A DNA stretch of 32,000 bases from a bacterium (GCA_002716355.1 PBAU01000002.1:143137-175136); one strand, 5' to 3'; positions 27,125 to 32,000 are shown, counted from the stretch's first letter. The notes: generated by a model from the sequence alone, not told the origin. Numbers and translations are program-made.

Positions 27125-28477
27125 TTAACTTCCAGGTGTTTCAACATTGGCAAGAGACCAGGTTAATGCTGCAATATGAGCCAAACCTTCCTTGAATTCA
27201 TTTTCATCAATTTTATCTAATGTGTCCGAAGGAGCATGATGGTAGTCGAAATACCTTACACCAATGTTTCTTAATCCAATCAGAAGAACGCCATGCTCTC
27301 TCATTGGACCTATGTCAACACCACTGCCTTCTCCGATTAGATCTAAACCTGTTCCAGCCAATATGCTTTCAAGCATTTCTTTTTGTGCATTGTTGCCTTC
27401 AGCAACCCATCCATTTGGTTTTTCAGCACCAAGATCCGATTCAATTGCAGCAAATGTATTTGCACCATATTCTTTAGAGTATTCAGTTCCACCCCTTGCG
27501 CCATTTTCTTCATTGGTCCAAAGTATTGCTCTAATGGTTCTTTTTGGTTTTAAGCCCAGTCTTTTGATTATGCTTAAGGTTTCCATTGCATGTACAACTC
27601 CAGCACCATCATCAAAGGCTCCATGGCCAACATCCCAGGCATCCAGATGTCCAGAAACTATAACAACTTCATCAGGATATTTGCTTCCCTTTATTTCACC
27701 AATGACGTTATGTGAAAGTGCATCAGGGTAGGTCTTTGCCGAAAGTTTCATCTGGACCCTTATTGGAATATTCATTTCTTGCATTTTTGCCATTGCCATA
27801 GCATCTTCAATCGTCACAGCTCCATATGGGATTTTTTTATATTCATTCGAATAGCCCATCCCACCTGTATGAGGAGTGTTTAGACTATTGATGGTAATGG
27901 ACCTTAACAAAGCGCCAACAGCGCCATGTTTTGCTGCCTCGATGGCTCCTGAATATCTAAACTTTGAAACCGCACCATAACCCTCTAGTGAGTTTTCTGG
28001 CATTGGGATGTTGAACAGGACTATTTTTCCTGCAACCTCAGGACTTAATTCTTCTACGTTGTTAACAACAACAACATCAGCTACTATAGGCTCAACCTTA
28101 CCTTCATTGTTTAAAGTTGCTACAGATCCGCCAAAAGAGAGAAAACTCATCTTTTTTAGATAGGGTTGCACAAGAAATAAAGATTCCTCATTTCTTTCCC
28201 AATGTGGAACCATCACTTCTTGTAAAAAAGACTCAATACCTTCATCTTCAAAAGATTTTCTCCCCCATGCCACTGCTTCCTCCAAACCCTTGCTTCCTGA
28301 AAGTCTATGCCCTATACTTAGGCATAATTCAGCCAACTTGTTCATTGCATCATTTTCCCCAAAAGCCATTTCTTTGATTTTTGAAATATCATTTTTCATC
28401 ATGTTTTCCTCCATGGAAGCTAATTTTGATGTCAAGAAGAATGCTAAAGCGACGAGCATAATTTTTTTATTTACCAT
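27125..28477 (-). CDS. Secreted M28 family aminopeptidase with PA domain
   Basis: The signal peptide is MVNKKIMLVALAFFLTSKLA. Zn-site blocks VSGHLDAWDVGHGAFDDGAGVV, WTNEENG and YHHAPSD are present. I set the start at the ATG at 28477, which has GAGGAGA upstream. The gene overlaps the preceding gene by 11 nt. Confidence 0.85.
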   Translation of the reverse strand: MVNKKIMLVALAFFLTSKLASMEENMMKNDISKIKEMAFGENDAMNKLAELCLSIGHRLSGSKGLEEAVAWGRKSFEDEGIESFLQEVMVPHWERNEESLFLVQPYLKKMSFLSFGGSVATLNNEGKVEPIVADVVVVNNVEELSPEVAGKIVLFNIPMPENSLEGYGAVSKFRYSGAIEAAKHGAVGALLRSITINSLNTPHTGGMGYSNEYKKIPYGAVTIEDAMAMAKMQEMNIPIRVQMKLSAKTYPDALSHNVIGEIKGSKYPDEVVIVSGHLDAWDVGHGAFDDGAGVVHAMETLSIIKRLGLKPKRTIRAILWTNEENGARGGTEYSKEYGANTFAAIESDLGAEKPNGWVAEGNNAQKEMLESILAGTGLDLIGEGSGVDIGPMREHGVLLIGLRNIGVRYFDYHHAPSDTLDKIDENEFKEGLAHIAALTWSLANVETPGS

Positions 28478-29633
28478 ATATTTCTCCTCGTGATAGTGAC
28501 ATGTCATTGTTTGTATCAATTTTTTTAAAATTTTCTAAAGACAAACCACTTTCAATTAATGTTATTTTATCGTTGCTGTCTTCATCCATCTTTGCAAAGT
28601 AAAAGATCAATTTTCCTTCTTTGAATTTGTCATATCTTGTAAAATCCATAAAATGTTTTTTGACCTCATTAAATTCAAGTTCAAAGTTTTGGTTTGCATC
28701 CATTGTTTCAAAAATGAAAAGAAAGCCTTCAAGTTCTCCAACCTCAAACAAATCTAATGTTTTTGAATAATCGCTGTCAAAAAGAATAAAAAAAGATTCT
28801 TCTGGAAGCCTGTTTATTCCTAAGCAAAACCTTTTTGCGAAATCGCTATATTCATAATTGCTGATTTCATTGTCTCCATTTTTATCTAAAGCAAGCAATA
28901 TAGGCAACATCTCTGCCGTTGTGGTTTCGAATGGATTAGGCCCGATCGATTCAATTATGCTTTTAAAGATCATTGTTGTTAATTTTGAACCTTTCATCAA
29001 GTATTCTTCAGCTTGGATCTCACCATCCATATTTTTATCGTATTCTTCCAGGTTTCTTGAGGATGGCTTTATTAAATTTGGATAAAGGGACATCAGGTCA
29101 GCATGAAAGAAAGCAAGAGCGTCATCATTGATGCTTTCTGCTGTTTTGCTAATGTCGTATTCGTAAAATGAGATATTTTCATCCATATCAAAATCAATAA
29201 TTGCAAATATTGTCATTGCTTCAGGTAGAAATTGCTCAACTGCTCTCCATTCCTTATATGAAATCAATCCATTTTGATCCTCATCAAGCCAATCTTTAAA
29301 ATTTTTTTGAAATAAGAATTCATTTATGGATATTTTGTTATCTTTGTTCTCATCCATTTCACTGAAACCAAAAGCAAAAACATTTAATTCTTTCTTGGAA
29401 AGGAAACAGTCTTCGTCTTTGTCCTTTCTTATAAAATCTTCCCTAAGAACCTGACTGCTTTCGTCTTCTTTAGGGAAATCACCATCGCATCTATAGAGAT
29501 TTTTGTATGGGTTTAGGTAACCATCAATATTTTGATATTCATAGGATTCTGCTTGTAGTTGCAGTAGTAAAAAAAATATAACCAATATTGAAAGCATGAT
29601 TAGTTTGATTATAAGGTTTGGCAAGGGGGACAA
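28467..29633 (-). CDS. Secreted protein with ten EF-hand calcium-binding loops
   Basis: Ten 12-residue loops fit D-x-[DN]-x-[DNS]-x6-E: DKDEDCFLSKKE, DENKDNKISINE, DEDQNGLISYKE, DFDMDENISFYE, DKNMDGEIQAEE, DKNGDNEISNYE, DSDYSKTLDLFE, DANQNFELEFNE, DEDSNDKITLIE and DTNNDMSLSRGE. The N-terminus is a hydrophobic signal. The start is uncertain (TTG at 29633 or ATG at 29597). Confidence 0.8.
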   Translation of the reverse strand: MSPLPNLIIKLIMLSILVIFFLLLQLQAESYEYQNIDGYLNPYKNLYRCDGDFPKEDESSQVLREDFIRKDKDEDCFLSKKELNVFAFGFSEMDENKDNKISINEFLFQKNFKDWLDEDQNGLISYKEWRAVEQFLPEAMTIFAIIDFDMDENISFYEYDISKTAESINDDALAFFHADLMSLYPNLIKPSSRNLEEYDKNMDGEIQAEEYLMKGSKLTTMIFKSIIESIGPNPFETTTAEMLPILLALDKNGDNEISNYEYSDFAKRFCLGINRLPEESFFILFDSDYSKTLDLFEVGELEGFLFIFETMDANQNFELEFNEVKKHFMDFTRYDKFKEGKLIFYFAKMDEDSNDKITLIESGLSLENFKKIDTNNDMSLSRGEIYGK

Positions 29634-29664
29634 TTGCCCCCTTTGCTTTTTTTAGAAACGCCTT

Positions 29665-30576
29665 TTAGAACTTAAGCGCGAAGCACAAGCTCAAGGTATC
29701 TGTTTCTGTGCCATCTGTATCATCGGTTTCGAAAGCTAATGCAGCGTGAACTGTGTCATTGATTTTTGTTTGAATACCCATAATCATGTTTTTAGTTTCA
29801 TTGCTGTCAGTTGTGTCTTTATTTCTTACAAATAAATTTACCCCATCTGTCATAGCAACAGCAAAGTCAAACCAGTTACCTTCTCTTGTTGTCGTGGTTG
29901 TCGTGCCAGCATCTGTGTTGTCAATTTCACCATCAGCAAAACCATAGCCAAAAGTGAATGATCCTGCGCTGTATGCAAGGTGTCCCAATACGAGAGAAGT
30001 GTTATCATCACTTGCGCCATGAGAACCGCTTTCAGACAATAGGCTGAAAGTTATTGCATCTGAGATTTCATGCTGCATGAATAAGCCAACCACCCCATCT
30101 TCTCCTTCTGGGGAACTTCCGTCTTCTCCACTTGTCATATAGATTTTCATGCCTTTATTGAGCACCCAATCAGTTCCTAGCATAATTCCAGTATCTTGTG
30201 AAGCCATCCATTTTTCAGAATCAGGAGCTGTTTTATATATCCACCTTCTTCCGTTGAATTTTTCTTCAAGAGCATTCCATGGTTTTCTTAGTTGGCCAAA
30301 CGTCAATCTACCTATGTTTGTTTTGGTTGAAACATAGGCATATTTCACATACGGATCCATTAAAGATCGATCAGAAAACTTGCCATCAAAAGTGAGCCTG
30401 AAACTTGTGTCATCACCAACATTGCCTTTCATGTTGATCCTTCCTCTGTTCAGATTCCAACCAATACCAGTATCAGTCACATCCATGTGAAAGAATATTT
30501 CACCGCTTGTTGATGCTGCATTTAGATTTACTGGCATTATTGCTAGGATTGTTGCTATTATTAATAATTTTTTCAT
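29665..30576 (-). CDS. Outer-membrane beta-barrel porin, small OprO/OprP-like
   Basis: It has a signal peptide (MKKLLIIATILAIMPVNLNA), alternating beta-strand amphipathicity and a C-terminal ...ALKF with terminal Phe. NRGRINMKG and VKYAYVS...IGRLTFGQLRKPW resemble the conserved blocks of phosphate-selective porin O/P. AAGGGGGG lies upstream. Confidence 0.7.
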   Translation of the reverse strand: MKKLLIIATILAIMPVNLNAASTSGEIFFHMDVTDTGIGWNLNRGRINMKGNVGDDTSFRLTFDGKFSDRSLMDPYVKYAYVSTKTNIGRLTFGQLRKPWNALEEKFNGRRWIYKTAPDSEKWMASQDTGIMLGTDWVLNKGMKIYMTSGEDGSSPEGEDGVVGLFMQHEISDAITFSLLSESGSHGASDDNTSLVLGHLAYSAGSFTFGYGFADGEIDNTDAGTTTTTTREGNWFDFAVAMTDGVNLFVRNKDTTDSNETKNMIMGIQTKINDTVHAALAFETDDTDGTETDTLSLCFALKF

Positions 30577-30742
30577 ATTTGAAAACCCCCCTTATTGCTT
30601 TAATAGGATTTATTGATCCTCCCAAGTGTGGATTTTATTTTTTTTATGCTTTTGAATTGTTTAAAAAAAGTAAAAATAGGGGTAATTATTTTTTTTGGGA
30701 AGTATTTGTGTTCCCCCAGGTTTATAGTGTTGATATGCTAAT

Positions 30743-31762: not shown

Positions 31763-31785
31763 TTTTTATCCTCCAGTGTTGGCAG

Positions 31786-31850
31786 AGGGGGGCACTTACT
31801 CCCCCCCTACGTTTAACATTTGTAGGGGGGGCACTTACATCCCCCCTACG
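31786..31850. repeat. Two direct copies of a G6-7/C6-7 hairpin element in the leader of the transferrin-like gene
   Basis: Copy 1 (31786-31811) is aGGGGGGcacttactCCCCCCCtacg. Copy 2 (31824-31850) is aGGGGGGGcacttacatCCCCCCtacg. Each can fold into a 6-7 bp all-G:C stem with an 8-9 nt loop. They lie between the upstream stop (31895) and the Shine-Dalgarno site (31769-31774). Confidence 0.8.
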
Positions 31851-31894
31851 GTTTTAGGAAGTGTGGTTACACACTATTTTTTCAATTTAATGAA

Positions 31895-32000
31895 CTAGCA
31901 TTCAGAACATTCTTTATCTTTCTGCTCGTGACCATGCTCGTGACCATGCTCGTGACCATGCTCGTGACCATGCTCGTGACCATGCTCGTGACCATGCTCG
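31895..32000 (-). CDS. 3' end of a gene encoding a His-rich C-terminal tail, E(HGHE)6-QKDKECSEC (partial; continues beyond the window)
   Basis: The minus-strand frame reads ...EHGHEHGHEHGHEHGHEHGHEHGHEQKDKECSEC, with TAG as the complement of 31895-31897. All three minus frames are open across the repeat. This frame is preferred because His/Glu-rich tails ending in CxxC are a known metal-binding pattern. The alternatives are (MVTS)n and (WSRA)n. Confidence 0.5.
   Translation of the reverse strand, partial: EHGHEHGHEHGHEHGHEHGHEHGHEQKDKECSEC
31924..32000. repeat. Perfect 12-nt tandem repeat (gctcgtgaccat) x6.4, running off the window edge
   Basis: Six identical units occupy 31924-31995, and 5 nt of a seventh follow. 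No substitutions are visible. Confidence 0.95.

Follow-up and report, generated by a model that had tools for sequence, protein, structure and literature searches.

The window analysed here is a 32,000-nucleotide (nt) stretch of DNA from an uncultured marine bacterium (GCA_002716355.1 PBAU01000002.1:143137-175136), the final 32 kb of contig C2 in an assembly of 1.26 Mb and 16 contigs that is 86.6% complete. Towards its right end, five successive minus-strand genes encode the tail of a His/Cys-rich protein, a transferrin-like binding protein (the binder), an outer-membrane porin, a ten-EF-hand protein and an M28 peptidase (Table 1). This run is best explained, with a probability of about 0.65, as a composite of two units, one for iron acquisition and the other an older pair of genes, and not as one five-gene system. 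The original prediction for this DNA, made from the sequence alone, had proposed that the neighbouring genes take up an anionic metal complex, or iron with carbonate, without a TonB-dependent receptor. The transferrin-family binder, the porin and the failure to find a TonB-dependent receptor are retained from that proposal, but the grouping of five neighbouring genes into a single system is not.

In the favoured scheme the first unit would comprise, in the order seen in near-identical strains, a FecCD-type ATP-binding cassette (ABC) importer, a HutZ-like protein, a heme oxygenase, the His/Cys-rich protein, the binder and the porin. The binder would be held at the inner membrane through its N-terminal helix, would bind Fe(III) and carbonate via Asp101, Tyr129, Tyr211, His264, Thr155 and Lys159, and would hand the iron to a PhnC/PhnE-type ATPase and permease encoded on contig C5. 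The ancestral binder gene would have stood directly before this pump pair and, in this genus, would have been excised and re-inserted between the heme oxygenase and porin genes. Dissolved inorganic iron would cross the outer membrane by a porin, for which the adjacent one is the obvious candidate. The second unit would consist of the ten-EF-hand protein and the M28 peptidase, which is of the carboxypeptidase-Q type.

Iron limits much of the ocean, and its supply to small streamlined heterotrophs without siderophore receptors is poorly known. The family to which the binder belongs is annotated as phosphonate transport, and a large survey of marine binding-protein transcripts explicitly left out the Transferrin family PF00405 (PMC11485210), so iron uptake by such organisms may be overlooked.

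A binder of the transferrin family

The transferrin likeness noted in the original prediction is upheld by profile and pairwise searches. The binder scores 80.6 bits against the Pfam Transferrin model (PF00405; E 1.6e-22, cut-off 20.3) and matches Phosphonate-bd at E 4.5e-29, and a Pfam scan lists only these two families for it. With phmmer the match to ovotransferrin reaches E 9.7e-32, and chains of ovotransferrin, lactoferrin, melanotransferrin and serotransferrin match the binder at E 1e-31 to 1e-27. The binder motifs LDGG, YYTAQA, CHTGWLKSAG, GYSGA and VPSH align on the corresponding transferrin motifs, and the predicted iron ligands D101, Y129, Y211 and H264 fall on LDGG, YYA, GYSGA and PSH of ovotransferrin and lactoferrin. 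In the predicted anion site T155 is kept, and K159 stands at the position of the transferrin Arg. All six residues, the Lys included, are invariant among the aligned family members (119/119), and none of eight PhnD-type outgroups has the Asp, the Thr/Lys pair, Tyr211 or the His. Judged by its sequence, the binder is a genuine transferrin-family protein with a full predicted iron site, and Fe(III) and carbonate are its most likely ligands.

The binder does not reach the cut-off of the PhnD equivalog model TIGR03431 (44.3 against 261.1 bits) or that of the subfamily model TIGR01098 (75.8 against 112.05 bits). Its AlphaFold model, with a predicted local distance difference test score (pLDDT) of 91, has a helix at residues 2-22, a disordered linker at residues 23-37 and a two-domain type II binding-protein fold; the N-terminal helix probably tethers the protein to the inner membrane. 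Foldseek matched the model to the human transferrin N-lobe and to ovotransferrin at E about 1e-16. Because the binder matches both Phosphonate-bd and Transferrin, fails the PhnD model and shares its fold with both groups, it is intermediate, by sequence and fold, between phosphonate-type binders and transferrins, and it has the metal site of the latter.

Eukaryotic transferrin lobes share with the binder a sequence-level match, the two-domain fold, the aligned Asp, Tyr, Tyr and His and the anion-site Thr. The binder is, in contrast, prokaryotic, has one lobe instead of two, carries an N-terminal membrane helix and has Lys for the carbonate-binding Arg. Eukaryotic transferrins use receptor-mediated endocytosis, whereas the binder's relatives are wired to an ABC importer. 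PhnD, PtxB, AioX and ArrX are like the binder in fold, in the ancestry that the Phosphonate-bd match indicates and in having PhnC/PhnE-type partners, but the PhnD-type binders lack the Asp, Tyr211 and His ligands and the binder lies far under the PhnD cut-off. Transferrin and diatom phytotransferrin have been traced to phosphonate-binding periplasmic proteins (PMC7676907), and a transferrin-like binder with PhnC/PhnE-type partners fits this published origin. A family that has such partners together with the iron site of transferrin would be a living form of the transition from phosphonate binder to transferrin.

Pump genes on contig C5 and the move of the binder gene

Binder homologues were sought in one genome per prokaryotic species, which gave 391 loci; the neighbourhood figures below refer to the best 80 of the 391, for which all neighbouring open reading frames (ORFs) were clustered. 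Archaea contribute 74 of the 80 loci (56 labelled Poseidoniales), and four are from bacterial metagenome-assembled genomes (MAGs) of the window's genus. The binder gene is followed by an ABC ATPase in 76 loci, and a BPD_transp_1 permease of roughly 300 residues is present in 66. The order binder, ATPase, PhnE-type permease is found in at least 66 of the 80, almost all archaeal, and also on three metagenome contigs (L119, L120 and L121). On L120 a DtxR-type iron-dependent repressor lies divergently upstream of the binder operon and adjoins a ZIP transporter. At the loci outside the window's genus, both in the 80-locus survey and on the three contigs, no porin of the window's family (by profile search), EF-hand gene or His-rich gene lies beside the binder. 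The linkage to these genes that the original prediction implied is therefore not conserved beyond the genus, where an ABC ATPase and a PhnE-type permease are the partners instead.

An M28 peptidase gene occurs a few genes downstream of the binder operon at 13 archaeal loci of the 80 (e.g. L036:12245-13477). A shared transfer of this gene and the bacterial M28 was considered and rejected, the two being only ~24% identical over 155 residues. The bacterial M28 was inherited vertically, and the likeness of these 13 loci to the bacterial layout looks coincidental. One further locus (L096), titled Yoonia sp. and taken from a Rhodobacterales MAG, shows the gene order typical of the archaeal loci and is probably mis-binned. 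Some family members, such as P0150 (702 residues), are two-lobed, with about 700 residues; they carry a lipoprotein signal, and each of their lobes has all the ligands. The two-lobed members precede the same ABC ATPase and permease, and at L121:228-3988 a two-lobed gene is apparently split into frames of 576 and 123 residues.

As the original prediction stated, the window contains no permease or ATPase gene, but this reflects the contig end. A cognate-type pair lies on C5, away from the binder, and a heme-type set lies beyond the end in near-identical strains. The C5 pair (about 47439-48982; L101:6440-7983) was found by tblastn of the archaeal ATPase and permease against the window's own genome and is 37% (ATPase) and 41% (permease) identical to the queries; the canonical PhnE copies on contig C11 are only 31-32% identical to the permease query. 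The genes on C5 are ordered alanine racemase (alr), a 200-residue membrane protein of no assigned family, a gap of 22 nt, ATPase, permease and, on the opposite strand, msrA, and there is no binder gene beside the pair. The permease passes the NCBIfam PhnE cut-off (230.8 against 216.7 bits) and the best match of the ATPase is PhnC; automatic annotation would label the pair a phosphonate transporter.

The contig L119 (72% G+C) has the order alr, a 202-residue membrane protein, binder, ATPase and permease. The alr on L119 shares 55% identity with its counterpart on C5 and the membrane protein 33%, and the binder is 54% identical to that of the window. Since L119 and C5 share this order except for the binder, in place of which C5 has 22 nt, the binder gene has moved from the pump operon, and C5 is an L119-type operon from which it was cleanly removed. 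In a permease tree the window's genus falls inside the binder-linked clade and apart from the PhnE paralogues (Shimodaira-Hasegawa-like approximate likelihood ratio test, SH-aLRT, 99), with the host of L119 as nearest neighbour (84), and a binder tree likewise groups the genus with that host (SH-aLRT 95). The permease is kept in all five congeners at 84-90% identity. The binder was found in four of the five; in the fifth the porin stands at a contig start, and the binder was probably lost to the assembly break. Only PhnE paralogues, and no C5-type permease, were found in a sister genus (G006, 78% complete) and a class-mate (G007, 93% complete). When PhnD-type outgroups were included in the binder tree, the bacterial clade was nested among archaeal sequences; the outgroup branches are very long, so that this nesting does not fix the direction of transfer between archaea and bacteria.

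Once parted from its pump, the binder might have given up transport and become a periplasmic iron buffer, store or sensor. It is unlinked from any permease in all congeners, its structural relatives AioX and ArrX are sensor binders, and the C5 pair sits in an apparent housekeeping operon after alr. Such a role is very doubtful, as the C5 pair remains intact in five congeners with no binder of its own, which is hard to explain without a partner, and the binder has neither a sensor kinase nor a regulator in its vicinity. It is also quite improbable that the binder handles an oxyanion (phosphonate, phosphite or arsenate) or another hard metal ion, with the PhnCE-type pump acting as annotated. The match to Phosphonate-bd, the score of the C5 permease over the PhnE cut-off, the presence of ArrX, AioX and PtxB among the best Foldseek matches and the Lys in place of the transferrin Arg would all suit an oxyanion, but the binder falls far short of the PhnD cut-off and its Asp, Tyr, Tyr and His are invariant in the family and missing in PhnD-type outgroups. 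A relative moreover adjoins an iron repressor and a ZIP transporter, the binder stands beside a heme oxygenase in this genus, and C11 already provides a canonical PhnD-PhnC-PhnE set.

Transport of iron by the binder and the C5 pump, as the two-unit reading proposes, can be compared with two sets of described genes. The operons of Marine Group II/III (Poseidoniales) have the same invariant site, a binder of the same family at 43-54% identity, and ATPase and permease orthologous to those on C5; NCBI names their binder 'PhnD/SsuA/transferrin family substrate-binding protein'. Unlike these archaea, the host of the window is a diderm bacterium in which the binder is split from the pump and lies between heme oxygenase and porin, and the lipoprotein signal of the Poseidoniales binder is replaced by a plain hydrophobic helix. 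By function, the nearest described systems are the FbpABC/FutABC ferric importers. These and HitABC resemble the proposed role in the periplasmic capture of unchelated Fe(III), sometimes with a synergistic anion, for delivery to an ABC importer, but their binders are of another family (FbpA is the so-called bacterial transferrin), whereas the window's pump is of the PhnC/PhnE lineage. An FbpA/FutA-type binder (SBP_bac_6, PF13343) gave no match in this genome. The literature searched, the coverage of which was incomplete, yielded no account of transferrin-family binders from either Poseidoniales or this bacterial group; phytotransferrin work of 2018 could already include such sequences. New are the host and the arrangement: a bacterium, from a lineage showing no TonB-dependent receptors, has its binder gene apart from the pump genes and moved into an iron locus.

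Heme genes, porin and the presumed entry of iron

The right end of the window is the end of C2, and the break lies inside a perfect 12-nt repeat coding for (HGHE)n. The rightward extension envisaged in the original prediction gave a mixed result: the His repeat is on no other contig of the assembly, but near-identical strains reveal the His-rich gene, a heme oxygenase and a FecCD-type importer. In strains and species with a binder 80-91% identical to that of the window, the gene upstream of the binder encodes a 183-residue heme oxygenase. In some of these relatives the oxygenase gene is preceded by genes for a FecCD permease, an ABC ATPase, a Peripla_BP_2 binder (its best match being the heme-binding IsdE) and a HutZ-like protein, the last under the cut-off at E 1.4e-47. 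These heme genes were not found in the 86.6%-complete assembly and are probably on an unbinned piece between two repeats. Elsewhere in the assembly, C5 (151337-151459), C13 (1-123) and C11 (1-1097) each break within the N-terminal segment of a type IV pilin-like (N_methyl) gene, the three segments being nearly identical, and repeats are therefore regarded as the cause of the assembly gaps near the iron locus.

The full His/Cys-rich protein has 77 residues, with a signal peptide, CEKC, the His repeat and CSEC (L005, where the binder is 91% identical to the window's). The repeat has three units in this form from relatives and at least six in the window. The gene lies between oxygenase and binder in the closest strains only and after the heme oxygenase in L126-L128; it is absent from most congeners, and a search for homologues of the protein found none outside its own cluster. 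The His-rich gene is a strain-level insertion. The G6/C6 hairpin stretch before the binder recurs unchanged in L005 and is missing from relatives without the His-rich gene; such hairpins are rare in the genome. Where the His-rich gene is lacking, a 9-bp stem and then a T-rich run come after the oxygenase gene, which suggests that the binder probably has its own transcription start.

The original prediction saw no TonB-dependent receptor in the window, and no receptor barrel of this type was found in the whole genome, in four congeners or in the sister genus G006 (each 78-87% complete; control genomes gave the expected matches). This 86.6%-complete genome yielded neither Fur nor a DtxR-type repressor, despite its iron-uptake genes. 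One frame of 733 residues may be FeoB, a model that also matches ordinary GTPases. Because the lineage shows no TonB-dependent receptor, inorganic iron presumably enters through a porin. A comparable route has been proposed in cyanobacteria, where inorganic iron would pass a porin and feed FutABC (PMC7676907).

The protein adjacent to the binder has a signal peptide and ends in LKF, with an aromatic last residue. Its AlphaFold model (pLDDT 85.6) is a 16-strand barrel with helices at residues 99-108 and 117-120 in the loop between strands 5 and 6, an arrangement shared with its best Foldseek matches, OmpT, OmpU, Omp32 and OmpF-class porins (template modelling score 0.65-0.76). The predicted barrel thus confirms the small porin of the original prediction, but the OprO/P-like blocks described for it have no direct support: the porin itself matches no family in NCBIfam or in Pfam (the latter even at E 5), and OprP/OprO are not among its top 50 structural matches. 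A sequence search of 1.84 billion representatives returned only 45 weak relatives. Among 33 aligned distant homologues, 18 match Porin_O_P (PF07396) weakly (best E 1.4e-6) and four match Porin_4.

The genome has a single copy of this porin family. In G006 (L118:2604-9230) and G007 (L125:7918-12276) the homologues directly follow molybdopterin/molybdenum oxidoreductase genes, which in G006 neighbour a 4Fe-4S subunit, an NrfD-like membrane subunit and a TorD-like chaperone. The homologue there may therefore be a channel for the anionic substrate of the oxidoreductase, and the context hints at anion passage through the porin. Molybdenum oxidoreductase genes of the G006/G007 type are absent from this genome.

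Entry of iron via the adjacent porin is the least-supported step of the scheme, because the adjacency is confined to one genus with the whole region syntenic. At slightly less than even odds, the porin is a general diffusion channel and its place beside the binder is the neutral outcome of the landing site. This would agree with its being the only member of its family in the genome, with its general-porin fold, with the different operons that hold its homologues in G006 and G007 and with the limitation of the adjacency to one genus. However, the gene landed in an iron locus that also holds genes for heme uptake and a heme oxygenase, and in a lineage with no TonB-dependent receptor a porin route for iron is needed anyway. 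A neutral adjacency is compatible with most of the two-unit reading and differs from it on the porin alone. A broader proposal, which we consider rather unlikely, is that the binder, the adjacent porin and the distant PhnC/PhnE-type pump form a complete TonB-independent route for inorganic iron, in which the porin may admit heme too and the relocation of the binder was selected for joint expression of entry and capture. The genus in any event offers a natural experiment, in which binder and pump have come apart and the binder gene now adjoins a porin gene and genes for heme use.

Several points weigh against the two-unit reading. The Arg that anchors carbonate in transferrins is Lys in every family member, and the Foldseek matches of the binder to the PhnD-lineage oxyanion binders PtxB, ArrX and AioX (E about 1e-17) are on par with those to transferrin. 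The pairing of the binder with the C5 genes is proposed from synteny and congruent trees only, and the canonical PhnD-PhnC-PhnE set on C11 could serve the binder instead. The binder-porin adjacency may be neutral, as set out above. Metal binding, transport and expression of the binder system are predictions from sequences and models, and the genomes compared are 71-93% complete, which makes every absence reported here provisional.

The EF-hand and M28 genes and the layout of the run

The EF-hand protein scores 45.1 bits against EF-hand_1 (cut-off 25.4), and ten separate canonical loops were counted, the number first given for it. The peptidase matches Peptidase_M28 at E 5.5e-23 (82.1 bits, cut-off 21.3), as expected; the PA domain attributed to it stays under its cut-off (17.6 against 23.9 bits), though many homologues carry one. 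More than 7,800 M28 homologues were found at E <= 1e-30, some of them named carboxypeptidase Q. In G006, the orthologous M28 (about 60% identity) comes after three EF-hand proteins, by DUF1800 and DUF1501. In L122 and L123, where M28 is 50-56% identical, EF-hand proteins stand one or two genes before it, near DUF1501. None of these three loci has the binder or the porin. At 44% identity of M28 the association with EF-hand proteins is gone. Because the EF-hand and M28 genes recur without binder or porin, they are an older independent unit, upstream of which the oxygenase-binder-porin block was set in this genus. The pair has no demonstrated iron link.

All five ORFs were found where the original prediction had placed them, co-oriented on the minus strand, and both of its spacing figures were reproduced, namely the 31-nt gap from the porin to the EF-hand gene and, with the M28 start at 28477, the 11-nt overlap of the EF-hand and M28 genes. 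The products of all five have N-terminal export-type segments. The co-oriented run, however, extends past M28 through genes for an EF-G paralogue, an esterase and DUF378, an order common to all close relatives, and the spacing there is equally tight. In a simple scan, the only T-tailed terminator-like site on the minus strand was at 23965-23940, after DUF378, and the five-gene boundary is therefore arbitrary. The stem-loop between binder and porin is conserved across three aligned species, and the scan called no T-tailed terminator there. A simple promoter scan did no better than on shuffled sequence.

The co-orientation, tight spacing and export-type segments, a gene order conserved in every species of the genus examined and the failure to find a TonB-dependent receptor would be accounted for if all five genes served a single dedicated system that takes up an anionic metal complex independently of TonB. 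We hold this to be extremely unlikely, as the neighbourhood survey largely refutes it. The binder is never linked to these genes outside the genus, the EF-hand and M28 genes occur without binder or porin in G006, L122 and L123, the His-rich gene, being a strain-level insertion, is absent from most congeners, and the run continues with the same spacing into the EF-G paralogue and esterase genes.

Table 1. Features of the minus-strand run at the right end of the window, from the contig end leftwards (positions in the window).
Feature	Position	Strand	Basis or remark
His/Cys-rich protein tail, 34 residues, (HGHE)6 QKDKECSEC	31895-31999	-	truncated by contig end
Pair of G6-loop-C6 hairpins in tandem, within the 132-nt spacer before the binder gene	31783-31849	-	sequence, fold z = -4.07
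Transferrin-like binder, single lobe, 339 residues	30743-31762	-	Pfam Transferrin and Phosphonate-bd
Binder-porin spacer	30577-30742	-	stem-loop just past binder stop codon, A/T-rich stretch, ribosome-binding site
16-strand outer-membrane porin, 303 residues	29665-30576	-	AlphaFold model, Foldseek
Secreted acidic ten-EF-hand protein, 388 residues	28467-29633	-	Pfam EF-hand families
M28 zinc peptidase, carboxypeptidase-Q type	27125-28477	-	Pfam Peptidase_M28; ATG same as in relatives
EF-G paralogue	25142-27088	-	begins 36 nt after M28
BD-FAE esterase	24243-25145	-	4-nt overlap with EF-G paralogue
DUF378 gene	23973-24206	-	followed by terminator-like hairpin

Contigs C4, C12 and C14 of the assembly have 28-29% G+C, against 35-39% in most others, and may be islands or mis-binned. 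Elsewhere in the window, a plus-strand gene (11947-13179) encodes a DsbA/thioredoxin-like domain fused to a YceI domain, and the next gene (13223-14338, plus strand) an ArsP_2-type exporter with 10 transmembrane segments. A heavy-metal P-type ATPase with an HMA domain is encoded at 17669-19783.

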